Source: an uncultured Acidobacteriota bacterium (lineage in GTDB: Bacteria; Acidobacteriota; Vicinamibacteria; Vicinamibacterales; UBA2999). Taken from it: a DNA stretch of 64,000 nucleotides. The stretch is taken from positions 341,087 through 405,086 of the forward strand of contig CAWAQA010000004.1 of assembly GCA_963784065.1 (NCBI GenBank), written 5' to 3'. The notes beneath the pieces are model-generated. The model made no database searches and was not told the DNA's origin. It was given only the letters and a program-made list of their open reading frames with translations. Position 1 is the stretch's first letter; every line of letters starts with the position of its first letter. Position numbers and translations under genes: made by a program. Below, piece by piece: positions 2,689-46,274 of this stretch.

Positions 2689-3930
2689 ATGCCCGACTAC
2701 AGCAGTTTTCTCTCGCCCATGGGGCGCCAGCTCCATGAATCCGCCATCCGCCGCATGGGCACCGTCGTGGCGAAGACTCACGATCTCGTGTCGTTCGCGG
2801 CCGGTTACCCCGACTCGAAGGTGTTTCCGTGGGACGACCTGCGGGCAATCGCAAGTGAGCTGCTGACCGGGACGGACGGCACCGTCCTTCAGTACGGGCC
2901 GACGCGCGGCCATCGTCCGCTGCTCGAGGCCATCCTCGGAGTCCTCGATGGGCGCGGGATCAAGGCCGACCTCGATGAATTGATGATCACCAGCGGCTCG
3001 CAGCAGGGGCTGGACCTCGTCGCGCGCGTCCTCATCAGCCCGGGCGACGTCGTGCTCGTGGAGTTGCCAACCTACACTGGCGCGATCGCGGCGTTCAAGA
3101 ACATGCAGGCCAACCTTGTCGGCGTCAAGCAGGACGAGGATGGCATCAACCTCGACGACCTCGACGCCGTGCTGCAGCATCAGCGTGCGGCGGGCCGGAC
3201 GGTGAAGCTGCTGTACCTGGTGCCAAACTTTCAGAACCCCACGGGCCTCCTGCTCAGCCTCGTCAAGCGTCAGCGTCTCATTGAGTGGGCCGAGAAGCGG
3301 GACGTGCTGATCCTCGAAGACGATCCCTACGGCGTTCTGTATTTCGACGACGTGGCGGCCGAGGCGGAGACGCGGCCGATTCGTGCAGACGACGACCGCG
3401 GGCGCGTGATCTACCTGAGCACGTTCTCCAAGACGCTCGCCCCGGGGTTCCGGGTCGGCTGGGTGGCGGCGCCGCCGGCGCTCATCGAGCGGTTCGATAC
3501 GGCCAAGCAGTCGATCGATCTCACGTCGGGCATTCTCGACCAGCGCATCATCCTCGAGGCCGTGCGCCGCGGCGTGCCCGGGCGGATCGCCCCGCAGCTT
3601 CGCGAGCTCTATCGACGGAAGCGCGACGTCATGGAGCAGGCGCTTCGGGCCGAGCTCGGCGATCGCCTCACGTGGCCTGCGCCGAAGGGCGGGTTCTTCC
3701 TCTGGGCGACGCTGCCGGCGGGGCAGGACGACCTGTCGCTGCTCGAGCGCGCTCTGGAGCAGCGGCTGGTGTTCGTGATCGGCAGTGCGTTCTACGTGGA
3801 CGGCTCGGGGCACGACAAGATCCGGCTCTCATTCTCGGCGCCCCCGGCGGAGCGCCTCGTCGAGGGCGCGCGGCGGCTGGCCGCAGTCCTGCAGCCGGCG
3901 GTTGGTGCAGTGGGGGTCAGACCCCGGTGA
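2689..3930 (+). CDS. PLP-dependent aminotransferase, fold type I (class I/II, 2-aminoadipate/aromatic transaminase-like)
   Basis: Intact 413-aa ORF with family hallmarks: ITSGSQQGLDL, LVELPTYTGA, LLYLVPNFQNPTG, DVLILEDDPYG, and YLSTFSKTLAPGFRVGW (PLP-lysine context). Confidence 0.85.
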   Translation: MPDYSSFLSPMGRQLHESAIRRMGTVVAKTHDLVSFAAGYPDSKVFPWDDLRAIASELLTGTDGTVLQYGPTRGHRPLLEAILGVLDGRGIKADLDELMITSGSQQGLDLVARVLISPGDVVLVELPTYTGAIAAFKNMQANLVGVKQDEDGINLDDLDAVLQHQRAAGRTVKLLYLVPNFQNPTGLLLSLVKRQRLIEWAEKRDVLILEDDPYGVLYFDDVAAEAETRPIRADDDRGRVIYLSTFSKTLAPGFRVGWVAAPPALIERFDTAKQSIDLTSGILDQRIILEAVRRGVPGRIAPQLRELYRRKRDVMEQALRAELGDRLTWPAPKGGFFLWATLPAGQDDLSLLERALEQRLVFVIGSAFYVDGSGHDKIRLSFSAPPAERLVEGARRLAAVLQPAVGAVGVRPR

Positions 3931-3959
3931 TGAACGTGGCAATGGGTTGAGTCGCCCCA

Positions 3960-5069
3960 CTACAGGGGCCTGACCCCAAGGATCCCCGCCAGAAGCAGGA
4001 CCGTGGCCAATGCCCCGGCCACCTGCCACGCCAGCTGCGTGCGCTTGCGGAGCGTGAGCGTGCCGAGGCACAGGACCAGGGCGGCGGCCATCAGCGCCCG
4101 GCGATACAGCTCCTCGAAGGTCGCGACTTCTTGTGTGAGGTCCGATCGCCGGGTCACCCGATCGAGAATCCTGAACGCCACAACCCGGTCGGGCTCGGTG
4201 CCGACCTCGAAATACTCGCCTCCGCCCGCTGCGGCGATCCGCGCGAGCGACGGCCGGTCGAGCGCCGAGCGGACGAGCGGCGGCGGACGTGTGCCGTCGG
4301 CGCGCGCCGGCTCCGGGATCATTCCGCCGCTGGTCGTGCCGATGCCCACCACGAAGACGGGGATATTGCGCACGCGCGCGGCCTCGAGCGCCGTCGCCAC
4401 GGTACCGCTCCACGCCTGGCCGTCGGAGATCACGACGAACGCCTTGGGATTGCCGCTGGCGCCGAACAGCTGTTCGTCCTGCTCCACGATCCGGAGTCCC
4501 CAGCGGATCCCTTCCTCGATGTTCGTATCCCACGTCGGCACGCTTTCGAGCGGGAAGGGCGAACGATCGCCGAGGTGATCGAGGAAGAAGAAGAGCGCGT
4601 TGGGATCGGTCGTGAGCCGTACCTGAGGCGCCGCGAGCTGCGCGAACAGGGCGAGCGCCACCCGGTCGCCCTGCCAGCTCAGTGCCTCCGCGAACGTGCG
4701 AAGGAACTGGATCGATCGCCGCCAGCGGTCGGGACGGACATCGGCGACATACATCGACGCCGAGCCATCCTGAAGGATGACGATGTCCGTGTTCGCTTTC
4801 CGCAACGCCGACACGCGCGCCTGCGGCCGCGCGAGCGCCGCGATGCCGAGGCTGGCCGCGACGATCACCGACAACCAGAAGGCGAGGTCGCCTGCGACCG
4901 CATAGCGTTCGCGAACCGGCACGATGCGACGCGCCACGAGGCGGCGGACGTCGGCGCGCCGGCGGAGGAGACGCCAGCCGAGGAGCAGCAGCAACGCTGC
5001 CGGAACCGTCAGCAGCCACAGCCAGACAGGCTCGGCGAAGCGGAAGGTGTCCAATTCGACTCGCGGCAC
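3960..5069 (-). CDS. VWA domain-containing membrane protein (BatA/BatB-like)
   Basis: Two N-terminal TM helices (VWLWLLTVPAALLLLLGW; LAFWLSVIVAASLGIAALA). MIDAS-type start DIVILQDGSASM. FVVISDGQAW and VFVVGIGT. A C-terminal TM helix. Last gene of the MoxR/DUF58 operon. Confidence 0.8.
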   Translation of the reverse strand: MPRVELDTFRFAEPVWLWLLTVPAALLLLLGWRLLRRRADVRRLVARRIVPVRERYAVAGDLAFWLSVIVAASLGIAALARPQARVSALRKANTDIVILQDGSASMYVADVRPDRWRRSIQFLRTFAEALSWQGDRVALALFAQLAAPQVRLTTDPNALFFFLDHLGDRSPFPLESVPTWDTNIEEGIRWGLRIVEQDEQLFGASGNPKAFVVISDGQAWSGTVATALEAARVRNIPVFVVGIGTTSGGMIPEPARADGTRPPPLVRSALDRPSLARIAAAGGGEYFEVGTEPDRVVAFRILDRVTRRSDLTQEVATFEELYRRALMAAALVLCLGTLTLRKRTQLAWQVAGALATVLLLAGILGVRPL

Positions 5070-5078
5070 ATGGACGCC

Positions 5079-5766
5079 TCAGCCCTTGCGCGTACCGGGA
5101 GGGGCCTTTGCCGCGTCGCCGCCGGTCGGCCTGCTGTCCCCGCTGTCCAGCGGGATGTAGAGCTCGAACCGTTCCTTCGTCGCCGCCGTTGGCGCGCCCT
5201 GCTCACCAAGATCGACGTCCGCGCCTTTCTCTGGAACCGCCGCCCGGCGCCCCTTGGCCACGTCATCGCGGAACCTGGCCGTGTACTCGTAGTTGTAAGC
5301 CGCGTCGCGCAGCCACGTGTCGGCCCGGAGGACCGTCCCGTAGCGGGCGACGGCGGCGTCGAGCGCCTGTTGCGTCGCGGCCCGGTCCTTCGCCTGCGCC
5401 AGGCCGGCGCGATACCCGGCGTTCGCCACCACCAGTTGCAGGTCGGCGGGAGGCTCGTCTTCCGCGGCGGCGGCGTCCGCCTGGCCCGGCGCGAGGCTGT
5501 CGAACTCGTCCTGCCAGTACCGGAGGGCGGCCTGCCGGACACGCATCTCGTCCCGGAAAGCCGCTTCCGAGCATCGGCACCCAGTCGGCATACCCCGCGT
5601 AACCGGCGGCCGCATCGAGGCTTTGTTGCGCCCTGTCGAACTGGAGCGTGGCCGTCTGCTCGTGTACGTCTGCGAGATGTCCTTCGATCCGCGAGACGGC
5701 CACGCAGAGGGCGCCCGCCGCGGCAAGGATCAACGCGGCCAGCACGAATGCGGAAAACCTCTTCAT
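5079..5766 (-). pseudogene. small membrane-anchored protein of the Bat-like operon, function unknown. One frame break near 5572.
   Basis: Starts MKRFSAFVLAALILAAAGALCVAV in ORF 5263..5784. It reads sensibly to ...YAGYADWVPM, then continues in ORF 5079..5726 (SEAAFRDEMRVRQAALRYWQDEF...YNYEYTARF...). It sits between the two VWA genes, where BatC-like proteins are found. Confidence 0.45.
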
Positions 5767-5805
5767 ATCGTCACCTCGGCACAATCCCCTGCGAGCTGAG
5801 ACACA

Positions 5806-6903
5806 TCATGGAAACGTTCGAAACGTCCGGACGCCAAGTGTCAGCAGTGCCGCCGACAGCCACAACGCCACCGCGGCAAGGAGGTACGCGGCGAACCGCG
5901 GACGCTCCACGCTGTATTCACGCACCTCAATCCGTCCGGGAGACAACCGATCGATGTCCGCAAGCGCACGCGTGATGGAGGCGTCGTCGTACGCGGCGTA
6001 AAAACGGCCGCCGGTCCGCTCGACCGCGTCCTTCCACAGCTTGTCCTCGCGGATCTCGCCTTCCTTGAGATTGAAGGCGGTGCGAACCATGTAGACCGGA
6101 ATACGGAACGCACGCGCATCCGCGATCAGCCGTTCGAGCGGGCGGCCCTCCTGGTTGAGTTCCGAGTCGCGACCGTCCGTGAAGAGAATCATCAGGTTTC
6201 CCGACGCGTTGACGAAGTCGAACGTCCGGAAGAGCCGCATGCCCTGGTCGATACCTTCGACAATCGTGGTCCCGAAATCATTGAACCGCCCCCATTCGCG
6301 CGGATCGCTGATGAGACGGATGCTCAACCGGACGCTCTGATAGTCGGTCGTGAACGGCGTGACGACGTATGCCTGGTTGCCGAACTGGATGAGGGCCACG
6401 AGATCGCGATAGGGACCGTCGATGCGGCGCTGGATGAAGTACTCGGCCGCGGCGACAGCCGTGAAAAAGGTCGACTCTCCGCGCGTGCGGAGGCTGGTGG
6501 CGCCGTATTTCATCACCATGCTCCCCGATGCATCGACGAGCAGGGCGACGCGGCGACCCGGGTACGACACCTCTTCCTGCGTGAAGCCGGTATGCGGATC
6601 GGCGAGCGCGATGGCGAAGAGCGGCAACCCGGCGAGGAACAGCAGCATCGGCAGGTGCCGCAGCCCGGCGAGCGGCGCCCGGCGAATGACGGGCAGAAGG
6701 GCGGGGAAGACGACGTGCGTGCGGCCTGCGCGGCTCGTCCGCGCCACGCTGACGATGAGCGCCAGCGCCGCAATCGCGAGCAGTATGACGAAGACCAGCA
6801 GCGCCGCGCGCGGTTCGGCGAACCGGAGCTCGCTCCAGCGCGTGCGCAGCCCTTCATCGGCAACGGCGCGGACCGCGATCAGCAGGCTCTGGAGCTGGTC
6901 CAC
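5806..6903 (-). CDS. VWA domain-containing membrane protein (BatA-like)
   Basis: Only the C-terminal 366 codons of ORF 5806..7572 look like protein. The likely GTG start at 6903 lies right after the upstream stop (6905-6907). TM helices LLVFVILLAIAALALIV and LPMLLFLAGLPLFAIAL. MIDAS motif LLVDASGSM. ILFTDGRDSE. C-terminal TM AAYLLAAVALWLSAALL. Confidence 0.8.
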   Translation of the reverse strand: MDQLQSLLIAVRAVADEGLRTRWSELRFAEPRAALLVFVILLAIAALALIVSVARTSRAGRTHVVFPALLPVIRRAPLAGLRHLPMLLFLAGLPLFAIALADPHTGFTQEEVSYPGRRVALLVDASGSMVMKYGATSLRTRGESTFFTAVAAAEYFIQRRIDGPYRDLVALIQFGNQAYVVTPFTTDYQSVRLSIRLISDPREWGRFNDFGTTIVEGIDQGMRLFRTFDFVNASGNLMILFTDGRDSELNQEGRPLERLIADARAFRIPVYMVRTAFNLKEGEIREDKLWKDAVERTGGRFYAAYDDASITRALADIDRLSPGRIEVREYSVERPRFAAYLLAAVALWLSAALLTLGVRTFRTFP

Positions 6904-19599: not shown

Positions 19600-19663
19600 A
19601 GCAGCGACCCGCACCTCCGGTCGATGGTCCTCGATTGAGGTTCTTCAACCGAATGCACCTGTC

Positions 19664-19770
19664 GCAGGGGCCGGCTTCAGCACGGAACAGAGCTCTCGTA
19701 GGGGCCGGCTTCAGCCGGCCCTTGGCGCAACCGATCGAGACGCAGGTCGGGCGCTAAAGCCGGCCCTCCG
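19664..19770. repeat. cluster of three REP-like hairpin units (GGGCCGGC-TTCA-GCCGGCCC type)
   Basis: 19698-19721 is gtag gggccggc ttca gccggccc, a perfect 8-bp stem with a GTAG head. 19664-19685 is a degenerate forward copy (gcag gggccggc ttca gcacgg). 19747-19770 is a degenerate inverted copy (reverse complement ggagggccggc ttta gcgcccg). Confidence 0.7.
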
Positions 19771-20105
19771 ATCGATTGACTGCGGGAGACAGTAGACTGG
19801 AGGCAGGATCGGGGGGAGAACAGATGAGCGCACAGAAGGACCTGGAGGGCCTGGGCAGTTACGAGGCTTCGTGCAGGTTCCGCGAGATCGCCGAAGCGCT
19901 CGATCGTGCCCGACGCCACGATCGCACGGGAGGCGGAGGCGAAGGACACGTCTCGGGATTCGTTGCAGCGTGAGCGCACGCGAGAAGCCGGCGACGCCGA
20001 CCCGGGCGATTCGTAATTCGCGATGGTGATCGCCGGATTCAGGCCTCTAAATCGCGCTTCGCGAACCGCAGATCACGATCCTCCCTGTTATCCTGTAACT
20101 CACCG

Positions 20106-22433
20106 ATGAGATGGCAGAAAAGGGCTCGCTTCGGCGTGGCGGTCTTCGGGATCGCGTGCGCGATTGCCGTATACGCGGCCATCGGCGAGCGTGCGGCCGG
20201 GACACCCCCGGCCGCGCCTGCGCGCATCGATCCGAAGGCCATCATCGAGAGCGAGGGCGCACAGCTCCAGCAGGAACGCGGCGCCGAGCGTGACTTCGAC
20301 ATCAAGTCCGACCGCCAGCTCGCCTACGAGGACGGCTCCACCAAGCTCATCGGAGTCGAGATCCACGTCCGCGGCCGCCGCGGGCGTGATTTCGTCCTCA
20401 CCGGACGTGAAGCGCAGGCTGGCCAGAACCAGGACGACCTGCAGCTCGCCGGCGCCGTCAAGCTCGCGGCGAGCGACGGCTTCGTGCTCACCGCCGAAAG
20501 TGCGTCCTTCAGCCGCGGCGACGGCATCGTGCGCGCTCCGGGACCGATCGCGTTCGAGAAGGGACGGATGTCCGGCTCTGGCGTCGGGATGTCCTACGAC
20601 CAGGAGAACGACGTCGTGTCGCTGCTCGAGCAGGCGCGGGTGAAGACGGCAAACGAGAACGGCACCACCCAGATGGAGTTCACAGCCGGCTCCGCGGTGT
20701 TGAATCGTCTCCAGGACTACCTGACGCTCGAGGGCAGCGTGCACGCCCTGCGCGGGGAACAGGTGTTCGACGCTGACCGCGGCACGGCGCGTCTGACAAC
20801 GGGCGAAGACGCCGTCACCTTCATCGAGCTCCGCGGCAACGCCCGCGTGGCCGGGGGAAGCGGGACGCTCGATGCGATGAGTGCCCGCGACATCGATCTC
20901 GACTACACCGACGACGGCCAGACGCTCGAGCGCGTGCTGCTGACCGGCAGTGCGGCGCTGGCGATGACCGGGCAGAACGGCGGCAGCGGCCGCCAGATGA
21001 TCGGCGAGACGCTCGACGTCGTGCTCGCCCCCGACGGTGCGGTGACGAAAGCCACGGGCCGCGAGAAGGTGCAGCTCGACATGCCGGCCTCCGATGGCGT
21101 CGCCGCTCGAACGGTCAAGTCGAGGTTGCTCGATGCCGACGGCGAGCCGGGCAAGGGCCTGACGGCGGCACGCTTCACCGACAACGTGGAGTATCGGGAG
21201 GAAGCGCGTCAGGGGGCGGCGCCGCGCGCGGCGCGCTCGAACGCGCTGCAGGTGACCTTCGAGGACGATGCGATCGACAGCGCCGTGTTCACCGGCAGCG
21301 TGCGATTCGCCGAGGAGGGGCTGCAGGCGTCCGGCGCCGAGGCTCGCTACGACCCGAACGAGGGTCGCCTGCGTATCACCGGCATCGATGCGGGGGGGCC
21401 GCCGCGCGTCGCGGATGAGCAGATCACGATCGAGGCGCAGAAGAGCATCGACGTGACGCTCGAGGATCGCGGCATGAGCGCCGTCGGCGTCGTGAAGACA
21501 TCGCTGCGCTCAGGTGGCCGCACACTTGCGGGACGCGGCCGCGGCGCCGGCTCGGCCCGCGCGTCGCGCCTCCCGGGCCTGCTCAAGAACGAGGAGCCCG
21601 CCAACGTCTGGGCCGACGCCCTCCAGTACGAAGGTGGCGCCGGCAAGGCGGTCTACAGCGGCGACGCGAGGCTCTGGCAGGGCGAAACGGCCATCCGGGC
21701 AGACGTCATCACCATCGACCAGAACAACGGCGACCTCGCCGCGGTCGGCTCGGCGCGCTCGACCCTCGTGTTCGATAACGGCATCTCGCAGGGCCGCGCC
21801 GCTGAAATCCGCTACGACGACGCGAAGCGCGTCATCGGTTATTCGAACCCCATCCTGTCCTCGCTGCCGGCAGCGGCTGGCGGACGAGGAGCCGCACCGG
21901 CAAGCCCGTCTCCCGCAGCGCCGGCAATTCCGCCCACCGGTGCACCGGCTCTCCCGCCGACCGCGTTACCGGCAAGCCCGCCCACCGTTGCACCGGCAAG
22001 CCCGCCCACCGTTGCACCGGCAGGCCCGTCCACCGTTGCACCGGCAGGCCCGCCCGGCGTCGCACCGGTTGTCCCGCTCGTCACCTCGGCCCTGTTGAGT
22101 GGACCGCAGGGCGATCTGCGCGCGAATCGGATCGAGGTGATCCTCGCGCGGAACGGCAGCCGCGTGGAGCGGCTCGAGGCGTACACCGATGTCAGCGCCC
22201 GCGTCGATACGCGGCTCGCCACCGGCGGGCGCCTCACGTACTACGCCGAGGACGAGCGTTACGTGCTGGTCGGCGCGTCGCCGGTGCCGGTGAAGGTCGT
22301 GGACATCTGCCGCTCGACGAGCGGCAAGACGGTGACGTTCTTCAAGACGGCCGATCGGATCATCGTCGACGGCAACGAGGAGATTCGCACGCAGACGAAG
22401 AGCGGCGGACCGTGCTCCGCGCCCGCGCGCTGA
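20106..22433 (+). CDS. large LptC/LptA-like (OstA-family) periplasmic LPS-transport protein with an N-terminal membrane anchor and a Pro-rich repeat insert
   Basis: Intact 775-aa ORF immediately upstream of lptB. TM anchor [19 protein letters not shown]. It carries several LptA-like beta-jellyroll segments ([46 protein letters not shown]; [26 protein letters not shown]; [19 protein letters not shown]). The call rests on pattern and synteny, not on a search. Confidence 0.6.
21893..22078 (+). repeat. 24-nt (8-codon) tandem repeat, about 7.5 degenerate units, encoding PPTVAPAS-type Pro-rich linker
   Basis: Best units are caccgttgcaccggcaagcccgcc (21983-22006), caccgttgcaccggcaggcccgtc (22007-22030) and caccgttgcaccggcaggcccgcc (22031-22054). 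Flanking units are progressively more degenerate. Confidence 0.8.
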
Positions 22434-23172
22434 ATGTCCACCCACACGTCGACGCTCTGCACCCAGGCGCTCACGAAGTCGTACAGCGGACGCACCGTCT
22501 GTACGGGGCGTGAGCCTGGACGTGGCATCCGGGGAGGTGGTCGGCCTGCTCGGGCCGAATGGCGCGGGCAAGACCACGACGTTCTACATGACGGTCGGGC
22601 TCACGGTGCCCGATTCGGGACGCGTGATCCTCGACGGCGAGGATGTCACCGATGACCCGATGTATGTGCGCGCGCGAAAGGGTATCGGCTACCTGCCGCA
22701 GGAGCCGTCGATCTTCCGTGGCCTCTCCGTGGAACAGAACATCATGGCCATCCTCGAGACCCTCGATCTCGACGCCGCCGGACGGCGCGAGCGGCTGCGC
22801 GAGCTGCTCGCCGAGCTGAACCTGACGCCTCTCGCCAAGGCACCGGCTTACACACTCTCGGGTGGCGAACGCCGGCGCGCCGAGATCACGCGCGCGCTCG
22901 TCATCTCGCCGCGGTTCATCCTGCTCGACGAGCCGTTCGCGGGCATCGATCCGATCGCCGTGACGGATATCCAGAAGATCATCTTCCACCTGAAGGAGCG
23001 CGGGATCGGCGTGCTGATCACCGATCACAACGTCCGCGAGACGCTCCGCATCACGGACCGGGCATACATCGTGCACGACGGCGTAATCTTTCGGAGCGGC
23101 ACGCCCGATTCACTCGCCGCTGACGAAGAAGTGCGCCGGATTTATTTGGGAGCCGACTTCCGGCTGGACTAA
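22434..23172 (+). pseudogene. lptB: LPS export ABC transporter ATP-binding protein LptB. The frame is broken by one extra base at 22500.
   Basis: The N-terminus ...[10 protein letters not shown] lies in the frame of ORF 22434. It continues [30 protein letters not shown] in the frame of ORF 22510. Deleting t22500 joins them. Signature [15 protein letters not shown] and Walker [13 protein letters not shown] are present. Confidence 0.9.
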
Positions 23173-23199: not shown

Positions 23200-24621
23200 A
23201 TGGCGATTTCGCAGAAACTGCACACAAAGCTCGTCCAGAAGCTGATTCTGACGCCGTCGCTTCAGCAGGCGATCAAGCTCCTTCCGATGTCCACGCTCGA
23301 GCTCTCCGAACTTCTCAACCAGGAGATGGTCGAGAACCCGATGCTCGAGGAAGTTCCCACGGAAGAGCTTCAGCCGGTCGAAGCGGCGCAGGAAAAACAG
23401 GAAGAGAAGAAACCCGAGAACAAGGACACCTGGGACGATCAGGATTACGAGTACTTCTTCGGCGACTATCTCGACGACGGCTACCGCCCGCGCACGCCGA
23501 CCGAGGTCAAGGAGCTGCCGCCGATCGAGAACACGCTCTCGAGTACCGCCTCGCTCTCGGACCACCTCCTCTGGCAGCTCTCGATGCAGACCGACGATGC
23601 GGCCATGCGCGAAATCGGCGAGGCGATCATCGGCAACCTCGATGACGACGGTTATCTCGTCGCCACGGTCGACGAGCTCGCGGGCATGGGCCCGTGGCCG
23701 ACCGAAGTGGTCGAGCGCGCGCTCAAGCTGGTTCAGGGCTTCGACCCGATCGGCGTCGCCAGCCGCGACCTGCAGGAATGCCTGCTGCTCCAATTACGTC
23801 ATCTCGGCATGTCCGGTACGCCGTCCGAGCGGATCGTCACGGAGCACATGCGGCTCCTGCAGAACCACCAGGTGCCCGAGCTCGCGCGCAAGCTCGGGAT
23901 GTCGATCGACGATCTCAAACAGCACATCGAGCTGATCCGCCACCTCGATCCGAAACCCGGCAGCCGGCTGAACCCGTCGCAGTCCCAGTACGTGATCCCC
24001 GACGTCTACATCGTGAAGGTCGAGGATCAGTACGTGGCCGTGCTCAACGAGGAAGGCCTGCCGCAGCTCAGGATCAGTCCGGTGTACCGGCGCCTGCTCG
24101 ACAAGAGCGCGGTGGAGAACACGGACGAGACACGCGCCTACGTGAAGGACAAGTTCCGCTCGGCGCTGTGGCTGATCAAGTCGGTGGAGCAGCGGCAGAA
24201 GACGATTCACAAGGTCGCCAGCAGCATCATCAACTTCCAGCGCGACTTCCTCGACCACGGCATCGAGTATCTGCGTCCGCTCGTCCTGCGCGACGTCGCC
24301 AACGACATCGGGATGCACGAGTCCACGGTGAGCCGCGTCGTCACCAACAAGTACATGCACACGCCGCAAGGCGTGTTCGAGATGAAGTACTTCTTCCACA
24401 GCGGCATTGCCAGCTCGTACGGCGAGGCGGTCTCGTCCGTGACGATCAAGCAGCGCATCCGGAAGATCATCGAACAGGAGGATCCGCGCAAGCCGCTGAG
24501 CGACTCGAAGATCGTCAGCATCCTCCAGCGCGAGGGCCTCGAGCTGGCGCGGCGCACGATCGCCAAGTACCGGGAGGAACTGAAGATCCCCACCTCCAAC
24601 CAGCGCAAAGTCCTCTATTAG
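23200..24621 (+). CDS. rpoN: RNA polymerase sigma-54 factor
   Basis: Intact 473-aa ORF. The N-terminus MAISQKLHTKLVQKLILTPSLQQAIKLL is region I. HTH region RDVANDIGMHESTVSRV. RpoN box ARRTIAKYREELKIP. Confidence 0.95.
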   Translation: MAISQKLHTKLVQKLILTPSLQQAIKLLPMSTLELSELLNQEMVENPMLEEVPTEELQPVEAAQEKQEEKKPENKDTWDDQDYEYFFGDYLDDGYRPRTPTEVKELPPIENTLSSTASLSDHLLWQLSMQTDDAAMREIGEAIIGNLDDDGYLVATVDELAGMGPWPTEVVERALKLVQGFDPIGVASRDLQECLLLQLRHLGMSGTPSERIVTEHMRLLQNHQVPELARKLGMSIDDLKQHIELIRHLDPKPGSRLNPSQSQYVIPDVYIVKVEDQYVAVLNEEGLPQLRISPVYRRLLDKSAVENTDETRAYVKDKFRSALWLIKSVEQRQKTIHKVASSIINFQRDFLDHGIEYLRPLVLRDVANDIGMHESTVSRVVTNKYMHTPQGVFEMKYFFHSGIASSYGEAVSSVTIKQRIRKIIEQEDPRKPLSDSKIVSILQREGLELARRTIAKYREELKIPTSNQRKVLY

Positions 24622-24665: not shown

Positions 24666-25233
24666 ATGCGTCTCGAACTGACTGGACGACACGTCACCAT
24701 CACCCCCAACATCCGTAAGCTGGTCGATCAGCAGCTGAAGCACGTGCAGCGCCTGCTCAACGATCACGCGGTCTCGGGGCAGATCGTGCTCACCAAGGAG
24801 AAATCGCGCGTGCACTGCGACGCGACCATCCACGCCCGCGGCGACAAGTTCCTGCACGGGGAGGCCTCGGGCAAGGACGTCGAGTCGGCCGTCGCCGGGG
24901 CGGTCGACAAGATCGATCGCCAGGCGCAGAAGATCAAGGGGAAATGGACCGAGAGCAAGCGCCGCGGCATCTCGGCGGCCAAGGCGGCGTCCGCCGCCCC
25001 CCGTCCCGAACGCGGCGGCAGGGCGTTTGGCGATCAGCCTCGCAGGCGGCGGAGAGGACGAGCTGCGGATCATCCGCGCCCGTCGCGCCGTGAAGCCGAT
25101 GACCATCGACGAAGCCGCCATGGAAGTAGGGGACGACAACAACGCGTTCGTCGTCTTCCGCAACGCGGACAACGACGAGATCACGGTGCTGTTCCGCCGG
25201 GCCGATGGCAACCTCGGGATAATCGAACCGTAA
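24666..25233 (+). pseudogene. hpf: ribosome hibernation-promoting factor, long form. One frame break near 25000.
   Basis: The N-terminal S30AE domain (MRLELTGRHVTITPNIRKLVDQQL...ARGDKFLHGEASGKDVESAVAGAVDKIDRQ) lies in ORF 24666. The C-terminal dimerisation domain (ELRIIRARRAVKPMTIDEAAMEVGDDNNAFVVFRNADNDEITVLFRRADGNLGIIEP) lies in ORF 25027..25233. The junction is in the Pro/Ala-rich linker around the C-run at 24997-25002. Confidence 0.85.
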
Positions 25234-25246
25234 GCGTAGCGGCCTG

Positions 25247-25324
25247 ATGCAAGTGCGAAATGCACGATGACAAACCGGACGTTTGGCATTCGGCATGGGG
25301 CATTTGGCATTGAGCATTGACATG
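25247..25324 (+). repeat. inverted heptanucleotide arrays: ATGCNNN-type (4 units) then NNGGCAT-type (6 units), ending on the hprK ATG
   Basis: Left array 25247-25274: atgcaag tgcgaaa tgcacga tgacaaa. Right array 25283-25324: ttggcat tcggcat ggggcat ttggcat tgagcat tgacatg. Confidence 0.75.
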
Positions 25325-43927: not shown

Positions 43928-45157
43928 ATGCGAATCATCGACCGCTACGTGATCCGTGAAGTGCTGTGGCCGTTCTGTCATCGGCCTGCTCGTGTTCACG
44001 TTCCTCTTCATTATTCCCTACCTGATCAAGCTTGCCGAAGACCTGATCGCGAAGGGGGTGTCGGCCACGGTCATCGCTGCAGCTGATGATCATGCTGCTG
44101 CCGTCCGGCGCTCGCGCTGACCATCCCGATGTCGCTGCTGCTCGGGCTGCTGGTCGCCTTCGGCCGGCTCTCCGCTGACCGCGAGTTCGTGGCGATGCAG
44201 GCGTGCGGCGTCAGCCTGACGCGGCTGCTGCGGCCGGTCGGCCTGCTGTCGATGACCGGCTGCGCGGCCACGATCGTACGTCCTGATCGTCGCGCTGCCC
44301 AACACCAATCAGGCGTTCCGCGAGATCATGTTCGACGTCGTCGCCGCGCGCGCCGAAGGCGAGGTCAGGCCGCGCGTCTTCTTCGAGGACTTCCCCGACC
44401 TCATGCTCTACGTCCGCGAGGTGTCGCCCTCCGGCGGCGGCTGGAACGACGTGTTCATGGCCGACACCCGCAACGGGTCGCACGGCCGTCTACCTGGCCC
44501 GGCACGGGCGCGTGCTCATCGACCGCGAGAAGGCGACGGTCGAAATGGTGCTCGAAGACGGCTCGCGCCACACCGCGGATACGGACGGGAAGTACGAGGT
44601 GTTCACGTTCGATCGCATGCTGCCTCAGCCTGAACCCGGAGTCGGTGTTCCCGAGCAGGGCGCCGCCGAGAGGCGACAACGAGATGACCATCGCCGAGCT
44701 GCGGGCGCGGGCGGCGGAGCTCGCAGGGAGGGACTGTCGACGCACAACCAGCTGATGGCGATCCACCAGAAGTTCTCGATCCCGGTGGCGTGCCTGGTGT
44801 TCGGCCTGATCGGCCTGGCGCTCGGCGCCACCAACCGCCGCGACGGCAAGCTGGCCAGCTTCGTCATCGGCATCGGCGTCATCTTCGTCTACTACGTCGT
44901 GCTCTGGTGGGCCAGGCGATGGCCAAGGGCCACATCTGCCGCCGTGGCTCGCCGTCTGGCTGCCGAACATCGTTCTCGGCGCGCTCGGCGTGCTGCTGTT
45001 CGTCTGGCGCAAGCGCGCCGCGGACCAGCCGCTGCGGCTCGCCCTGCCGGCGCGCTGGCGGCGTCCGGCGACTCCATCAACCGCCGAGGCGGCGCCGGTC
45101 GGGCACGGTGAGCCGCATGGCGCCCCGGGTTCGCGTCGCGGCTGTCCGCGGCGCTGA
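43928..45157 (+). pseudogene. lptF: LPS export ABC transporter permease LptF. About six frame breaks.
   Basis: ATG 43928 opens [16 protein letters not shown], too short to appear in the ORF track. IGLLVFTFLFIIPYLIKLAEDLIAKGV. MSLLLGLLVAFGRLSADREFVAMQACGVSLTRLL lies in ORF 44129. FDVVAARAEGEVRPRVFFEDFPDLMLYVREV lies in ORF 44328. MAIHQKFSIPVACLVFGLIGLALG lies in ORF 44512. LAVWLPNIVLGALGVLLFVW is from my own translation. The stop at 45155-45157 overlaps the lptG ATG. Confidence 0.8.
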
Positions 45158-46274
45158 TGCCGATGCCGGGCATCCTCGATCGCTACGTGGCCACGAGCTA
45201 CCTGCGCGTGCTCGGCGCTGGCGGCGCTCGGCATGGCCGGCATCTTCTACATCTCGACCTTCCTCGACCTCGCGGACGAAGTGTTCAAGGGACAGGCGAC
45301 GTGGGCCATGCTCGGCGAGTACTTCTGGTACACGACGCCGCAGTACATCTACTACATCCTGCCGCTGGCCGTGCTGCTCGCCACGCTGGTCACCATCGGC
45401 CTGCTGACCAAGAACAGCGAGCTGATCGTGATGAAGGCGTGCGGCATCAGCCTGTATCGCGTGGCGCTGCCGATGCTCGTCGGCGGGCTGCTCGCGGGCG
45501 GCGTCCTGTTCCTCCTCGAGGAGAGCGTGCTCGGGCCGTCCAATCGCCGCGCCGAAGCGATCCGCCACGTCATGCGCGGCGGGTCGCCGCAGACCTTCGA
45601 TGTCCTCAACCGTCGCTGGATCGTCGGCAGCGACGGCGAAATCTACAACTACAACTATTTCGATCCGCGCGTCACGCCAGCTCGCAGGGCTGTCGATTTA
45701 CGAGTTCGATCGCGGCATGAACACGCTGCGGCGCCGCGTCTACGCCGAGCGTGCCGTCGTACGTCGGCGGCGGCGACGGCGAAGAACGCGCCGACGTCTG
45801 GCACGCGGAGCAGGGCTGGATGCGCGAATTCGACGAAGCGGGCGAGCCGAGCCGCTTCAACGCGTTCGCGGAATCACGCGCTGACGATCGAACCGGCGAG
45901 CTACTTCGCCACGCAGCAGCCGGATCCGCGGCTACATGAGCTATTCGCAGCTGCGCGGCTACATCGTGCGGCTGCGCGAAAGCGGCTTCGACGTGATCGC
46001 GCAGCAGGTCGCGCTCGAGCGGAAGATTTCGTTCCCGTTCGTCACGCTGATCATGACGCTGATCGCCGTTCCGTTCGCCGTGACCACGGGGCGGCGGGGC
46101 GCGATGTACGGCATCGGCATCGGCATCGTGCTCGCGATCTGGTACTGGGTTACATTCAGCGTGTTCGCCGCGCTCGGCACGGGCGGGTTGCTGACGCCGC
46201 TGCTGGCGGCATGGGCGCCGAACCTGCTCTTCGGCGCGGGCGCCGCGTATCTCCTCTTGACGGTTCGCACCTGA
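45157..46274 (+). pseudogene. lptG: LPS export ABC transporter permease LptG. About four frame breaks.
   Basis: MPMPGILDRYVATSYLRVL lies in ORF 45157. MAGIFYISTFLDLADEVF...TKNSELIVMKACGISLYRVALPML lies in ORF 45233. The C-terminus YIVRLRESGFDVIAQQVALERKISFPFVTLIMTLIAVPFAV...LLLTVRT lies in ORF 45936..46274. Confidence 0.8.

Follow-up and report, generated by a model that had tools for sequence, protein, structure and literature searches.

A predicted single-chain LptC-LptA-type protein with a length-variable Pro-rich loop, encoded directly upstream of lptB in an uncultured Acidobacteriota bacterium

The window analysed here, a stretch of 64,000 nt from the genome of an uncultured soil bacterium of the Acidobacteriota, carries on its forward strand (20106..22433) a gene for a fused LptC-LptA-type protein of 775 aa (P0001). 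The frame, taken from the list of open reading frames and its translation, starts with ATG, is open throughout and aligns end to end with full-length homologs (100% coverage); its start is conserved, the homolog consensus opening with MRWQKRAR. Gene order is accA, recJ, a gap of about 500 nt, the 775-aa frame, lptB, rpoN and hpf. The lptB gene (22434..23172, forward strand; TIGR04406, 340 bits), which encodes the ABC ATPase of the same machine, lies in two frames owing to one extra T at 22500; rpoN (23200-24621) and hpf (24666-25247), both on the forward strand, are the canonical downstream neighbours of lptCAB. Because lptB, rpoN and hpf follow directly, the 775-aa frame occupies the canonical slot of lptC and lptA, which places it in an lptC-lptA-lptB(-rpoN-hpf) cluster and bears out the preliminary description, in which one large frame had been noticed where two small genes are normally found. 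The same gene order is found in relatives, with an intact lptB immediately after the fused gene. The permease pair of the machine, lptF and lptG, is encoded further along the window (44108..46259, forward strand; G000:C4:385194-387345; PF03739 matches), both genes being split across frames.

Other parts of the pathway were located in the same genome. A single lptB ortholog is present, the one adjoining the fused gene. LpxC is present, its gene being frame-split, so lipid A is made. The LptD candidate is fragmented on contig 1, with barrel candidates at G000:C1 around 126-127.5 kb; its counterpart in the relative G073 is a protein of 1229 aa with an LptD_2 match at residues 639-808.

The assembly consists of 10 contigs and has an estimated completeness of 81%. 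In lptB, the N-terminal 22 aa are in another frame, and DNA alignment with the loci of two relatives (L019 and L037) puts the extra T inside the codons of the conserved GRTVVRGVS; lptF, lptG and lpxC are likewise split across frames, and many ABC ATPase matches genome-wide fall in adjacent pieces. The simplest reading of these frame splits is that they are indel errors of a long-read assembly and not pseudogenes.

A model of the whole protein was built with AlphaFold2 (AF2) on a 43-sequence alignment (mean pLDDT 84, pTM 0.71). It comprises one transmembrane helix and 47 meander strands, laid out as a helix at aa 2-27, an uninterrupted beta-meander at aa 47-467, six strands at aa 499-580 and eleven short strands at aa 662-759. 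The N-terminal helix (20109..20186; hydrophobic core aa 9-27), conserved in homologs and included from aa 14 in the TIGR04409 alignment, corresponds to the membrane anchor proposed in the preliminary description and would hold the protein in the inner membrane. It is the only such helix and is followed, from the first strand at aa 47, by a predicted periplasmic beta-jellyroll, as expected of LptC. The LptC-type jellyroll (aa 44-188; 20235..20669) is recognized by PF06835 at aa 62-180 (36.4 bits; cut-off 21) and by TIGR04409 at aa 14-179 (45.1 bits; cut-off 38), and superposes on the solved LptC 6mit_C with Z 17.9 and an rmsd of 3.0 Å over 143 residues. LptC is otherwise a small protein in its own right, about 190 aa long, with LptA as a separate binding partner; here the chain runs to 775 aa and carries LptA-type modules of its own. 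A Foldseek search with the whole 775-aa model returned mainly uninformative long alignments (LptD barrels, Rhs, teneurin; rmsd >30 Å), and searches at the level of domains were used instead.

The middle region (aa 189-467; 20670..21506) is predicted as a continuous Lpt-type jellyroll of about 19 strands, roughly two LptA equivalents. In a Pfam scan of the whole protein, no match was found between aa 181 and 500; with the middle part scanned alone, PF03968 matched at aa 193-292 (20.4 bits), as it did in 38 of 43 homologs (species), and aa 320-470, scanned alone in 10 species, gave nothing significant in Pfam. Modelled alone on 43 species-level sequences, aa 186-470 reached a pLDDT of 94.9 and a pTM of 0.91. 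This model was searched against 48,161 PDB representative chains without the Foldseek prefilter. Its best match was LptH 4uu4, the Pseudomonas LptA (Z 13.3; rmsd 2.3 Å; 132 of 143 residues; aa 293-439), followed by the N-domain of LptD 5iv9 (Z 12.9; aa 187-394), with LptA 2r19 (Z 11.8) and LptC also among the top matches; MORN-repeat sheets come close in score (Z 11-12), with fewer residues covered per strand. Structure prediction, one of the checks proposed for this protein, thus returned the folds of LptC and LptA/LptH as top PDB matches. Residues 320-470 are assigned to the Lpt type by their predicted fold only. The length of the middle region is strongly conserved (278-295 aa among homologs).

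Between the middle region and the next module lies a Gly/Arg/Ala-rich variable linker (aa 468-498; 21507..21599), modelled with pLDDT of about 50-70, falling below 50 at aa 474-483. Its length in homologs varies between 25 and 59 aa, and it closes with a conserved (R/K)LPGLL motif, immediately ahead of the stretch aligned with the N-terminus of mature LptA (model position 6). The LptA-type module that follows (aa 499-580, six strands; 21600..21845) gives the strongest sequence match of the protein: PF03968 at aa 501-577 with 67.5 bits (cut-off 20.4), and TIGR03002 at aa 495-577 with 72.0 bits, which barely passes the cut-off of 71.7 and spans only model positions 6-94 of 142. A profile search of the PDB with this module matched LptH and LptA.

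The C-terminal LptA/LptD_N-type segment (aa 662-760, eleven short strands; 22089..22385) is assigned from its PF03968 match and from invariant columns. Scanned separately, the C-terminal part matched PF03968 at aa 671-746 with 19 bits, and the C-terminal 115 aa did so in 42 of 43 homologs; PDB sequences searched with a profile of the same 115 aa gave no match. The segment contains two conserved cysteines, C735 and C770, and is among the best conserved parts of the protein, with higher identity than the N-terminal part in the relatives compared. The preliminary description had counted at least three LptA-like segments by eye, and the three PF03968 matches (aa 193-292, 501-577 and 671-746) agree with that count; the profile searches that it had called for place both the LptC and the LptA family above curated cut-offs. 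The Lpt-type jellyroll is seen in the model of aa 186-470, and for aa 499-760 it is indicated by predicted all-beta structure together with the profile matches. That the jellyroll is continuous across the disordered stretches at aa 468-498 and 581-661 is a prediction of the AF2 model.

The LptA-type parts are internal to a membrane-anchored chain in which no internal hydrophobic signal sequence is present; the arrangement therefore differs from that of a free periplasmic LptA with its own cleavable signal peptide. P0001 also has no PF04453 or PF19838 match, and so no C-terminal outer-membrane beta-barrel of the LptD kind. Profile-profile alignment (hhalign) among the four segments detected no significant internal repeat (probabilities ≤12.5%), which argues that the modules are old and rules them out as recent duplicates.

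The two last segments are separated by a disordered Pro/Ala-rich loop (aa 581-661; 21846..22088; pLDDT <50 over aa 586-652) that holds a 24-nt tandem array. Tandem Repeats Finder reports a period of 24 with 7.3 copies at 21894-22068 and 79% matches. Read in frame, the units are APASPSPA, APAIPPTG, APALPPTA, LPASPPTV, APASPPTV, APAGPSTV and APAGPPGV; only the two central ones are near-identical (with the register moved by 3 nt, their 24 nt agree completely), and the units further out are degenerate. The preliminary description had spoken of a linker of about 7.5 copies interrupting the LptA-like segments, made of perfect units and recently expanded. The array does stand between two jellyroll segments, with the copy number corrected to 7.3; the units are not perfect; and a recent expansion is plausible, since in an alignment of the gene from 46 species and the window, 47 in all, the window has the longest loop (81 residues). 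Between the strand ending at aa 580 and the one starting at aa 662, the loop ranges from 3 to 81 residues in these species (median about 15). The closest relatives that cover it (73-78% identity) have 51-69 residues over a stretch that is 103 residues long in the window, consistent with a lineage-specific expansion by about five units. Two metagenome scans for contigs of the same strain, which would have given repeat copy numbers, returned no matches, and a homolog fragment of 95% identity (P0149) spans aa 258-399 only, outside the loop.

Many lineages carry a Pro/Ala/Thr-rich low-complexity sequence of their own at the loop site, and period-24 arrays are found there in three other species (L029, L021, L077). 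Because several species have a turn of only 3 residues, the strands on either side must lie next to each other in the fold, and the long versions are loop-outs and not spacers between two halves of a bridge. A loop that splits one canonical LptA domain was considered and rejected: in the short-loop homologs scanned, the match to the LptA model still ends at model position 95, so the loop separates two LptA-type segments. The 24-nt unit is divisible by 3 and is part of the coding sequence; slippage would therefore alter the length of the loop and keep the frame, and the array differs from phase-variable (contingency) loci, in which a change in copy number switches a frame or a promoter.

Homologs of 680-850 aa with both Pfam domains number at least 665 in the protein database, from Acidobacteria and Vicinamibacterales; some sources call them LptA and others LptC. 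When each species was represented by one genome, a scan recovered 61 loci; most are full length, and almost all come from MAGs labelled Vicinamibacterales or Acidobacteriota. PF06835 was matched in 77 of 120 good-quality Acidobacteriota genomes, almost always in open frames of 600-1100 aa; the tally includes one genome flagged as unpublished (G024) and is independent of it. A further 67 homologs are shorter; they come from contigs some 1-2 kb long, or from long-read contigs with several fragments of the same gene, and are truncations (contig-end or frameshift fragments), not split genes.

Separate lptA and lptC genes elsewhere in the genome, which would have spoken against a fused protein, were looked for with PF03968 and PF06835. 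In this genome (81% complete) only the 775-aa frame was matched, and in the single-contig relatives G073 and G110 PF03968 matches only the fused frame; the sole PF03968 match reported for another relative, G044, is a different open frame of 879 aa. A covalently fused bridge had been thought unusual in the preliminary description. Judged by the homologs and loci counted above, that view is not upheld: in Vicinamibacterales the fused form is the standard and ancestral one, and it is widespread in Acidobacteriota, apparently phylum-wide.

From domain content, predicted fold, gene order and conservation we infer, with a probability of about 0.8, that the periplasmic, inner-membrane-anchored portion of the LPS export bridge is made from this gene as a single LptC-LptA-type polypeptide. 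By analogy with the Lpt model of E. coli, the transmembrane helix and the LptC jellyroll would dock on LptB2FG. The LptC module would be continued covalently by about 36 LptA-type strands; with 47 strands in all, the chain would amount to roughly LptC plus 2-3 LptA equivalents. E. coli LptA has 16 strands. LptB2FG would push LPS into one hydrophobic groove, along which it would slide through the continuous jellyroll, and the conserved C-terminal end, probably stapled by a disulfide, would dock, edge to edge, on the outer-membrane LptD. Soluble LptA would not be needed, so that the composition and length of the bridge would be fixed by the gene. The Pro-rich repeat region would loop out from between two neighbouring strands in the last part of the jellyroll and would grow or shrink in frame by slippage. 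We read it as an ordinary hypervariable loop, slippage-prone, tolerated and presumably neutral, and most likely dispensable for transport.

In vitro, an engineered E. coli fusion of LptC and LptA associates stably with LptB2FG and supports ATP-dependent transfer of LPS to LptD (PMC12065857), which indicates that covalent linkage is compatible with function. The same result weighs against an alternative in which the chain would be cleaved after export, at the linker of aa 468-498 and/or the loop of aa 581-661, leaving a long LptC in the membrane and releasing LptA-like pieces to associate non-covalently as in E. coli. Two disordered, length-variable stretches stand exactly at module borders, and the conserved (R/K)LPGLL precedes sequence aligning with the mature LptA N-terminus, both of which speak for such a cut; but neither a protease site nor a hydrophobic stretch resembling a signal peptide is present, the second stretch is reduced in several species to 3 residues, too few there for a linker that could be cut, and the uncleaved E. 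coli fusion works in vitro. We regard cleavage as unlikely. The chance that small lptC and lptA genes were joined into one frame by long-read indel errors is negligible: errors of this kind are present in the neighbouring essential genes lptB, lptF and lptG and also in lpxC, but the uninterrupted architecture of 680-850 aa recurs, at 100% coverage, in at least 665 independent protein clusters and in 61 genomes of numerous projects, some of them assembled from short reads, and the middle region is conserved in length and folds with a pLDDT of 95. Transport of another lipid cargo, or a structural tether between the membranes built from the Lpt fold, has precedent in the proposed movement of lipoproteins by the Lpt machinery in Borrelia and in the expanded Lpt pathway reported in Bacteroides. 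Against it stand the position of the gene in the lptC/lptA slot beside the only lptB ortholog, the presence of LpxC, and the failure to find, in the genome searched, a second LptC or LptA candidate that could serve LPS; it is accordingly considered very unlikely.

The loop might alternatively be functional, as an extended polyproline-type arm reaching the peptidoglycan or a partner in the outer membrane or as a device that tunes the reach of the last module, with copy number under selection. Pro-rich sequence recurs at the site in many lineages, arrays of period 24 are found at the same place in three other species, and a unit divisible by 3 always keeps the reading frame. Many homologs nevertheless have only 3-16 residues there, with no bias towards Pro, the sequence of the loop is not conserved, and slippage in a high-GC genome yields Pro/Ala-rich low-complexity sequence by itself. 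A function of its own for the loop is therefore judged improbable, with somewhat more to be said for it than for cleavage, and the bridge protein with a tolerated, variable loop is the reading retained here.

As a further suggestion, to which we give a little less than an even chance, the whole span from the inner membrane to LptD in Acidobacteriota may be covered by one gene product whose length is fixed, at 47 strands or about three LptA equivalents, and which acts as a built-in ruler of periplasm width; the Pro-rich loop could also be an arm facing the peptidoglycan. [quoted passage not shown] In E. coli, the number of LptA copies per bridge and the way in which the bridge is assembled and dissolved are still debated; if the ruler reading is true, Acidobacteriota would provide a natural system in which bridge stoichiometry is set genetically. 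A natural one-chain LptC-(LptA-like)n, conserved in a major soil phylum, would offer structural studies of a complete bridge a well-defined target, and would imply that a soluble pool of LptA is not universal in LPS export. The mixed naming of the homologs means that pathway surveys may score LptC or LptA as missing in Acidobacteriota. Acidobacteriota are not among the phyla covered by a survey of LptC anchoring (PMC9544173), and the literature searched in full text, with partial coverage, yielded no account of a naturally fused LptC-LptA or of the Lpt proteins of this phylum. The fusion is already labelled in databases, if inconsistently. Its interest is moderate and lies in its being a natural single-chain bridge; the repeat is a minor feature.

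Among known systems, LptC of E. coli and Enterobacter (PDB 3MY2; 6MIT chain C) shares with the protein described here the single N-terminal transmembrane helix, the jellyroll that follows and the position of its gene upstream of lptB; it ends at about 190 aa, whereas the jellyroll here is predicted to continue covalently for about 580 aa more. LptA and LptH (PDB 2R19, 4UU4) have the same fold, and their family is matched in sequence at aa 193-292, 501-577 and 671-746; they are free in the periplasm, in contrast to the several LptA-type stretches, with two disordered inserts, that are united here on one chain. The N-terminal jellyroll of LptD (PDB 5IV9, 4Q35) belongs to the same PF03968 family and has the same fold (Z 12.9), but P0001 lacks an outer-membrane barrel and a separate large LptD candidate exists. 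The engineered E. coli fusion (PMC12065857) likewise joins LptC and LptA on one chain; it is man-made and contains one LptA, whereas the protein described here is natural, conserved in its phylum and equivalent to about 2-3 LptA.

The fused LptC-LptA-type protein (775 aa; window 20106-22433, + strand) contains a second length-variable linker, rich in Gly, Arg and Ala, at aa 468-498 (window 21507-21599). Its length ranges from 25 to 59 aa among homologs, and a conserved (R/K)LPGLL motif forms its end, immediately before the LptA-type module; the linker could be a relic of the old lptC-lptA junction. In the C-terminal segment, C735 and C770 (window 22308-22310 and 22413-22415) show little or no variation across the family, which suggests that a periplasmic disulfide between them may staple the C-terminal tail. 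Upstream, about 500 nt of non-coding DNA (window 19600-20105) lie between recJ and the fused gene.

Downstream, lptB (window 22434-23172) carries one inserted T at 22500, which shifts the frame within the conserved GRTVVRGVS codons; lptB is intact at the equivalent position in relatives, and the extra T is probably an assembly error. Such indel errors seem to be numerous in the assembly of the window's own genome, which comprises 10 contigs and is 81% "complete": lptF and lptG (window 44108-46259) and lpxC (G000:C3:1265263-1266071) are each broken into pieces that lie in two or three different frames, and numerous ABC ATPase matches throughout the genome appear as neighbouring fragments. Calls of "pseudogene" in this assembly therefore require read-level support.

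In the relative G044, the sole reported match to PF03968 (LptA/LptD_N, OstA-like) lies at G044:C1:733062-733286, inside an 879-aa open frame distant from the fused gene of that genome (2080282-2082354); this frame could represent an LptD N-domain or another OstA-like protein. This order has an LptD candidate of very large size, 1229 aa in the complete, single-contig relative G073 (locus L080, G073:C1:989000-996000; ORF 2880-6569, - strand), and the candidate of the window's own genome is located at about 126-127.5 kb of G000:C1. In the G073 protein the family match is confined to residues 639-808 (LptD_2, PF19838), the N-terminal part of roughly 640 aa being without a Pfam match. This part could hold a further jellyroll, in which case the bridge would be longer again.
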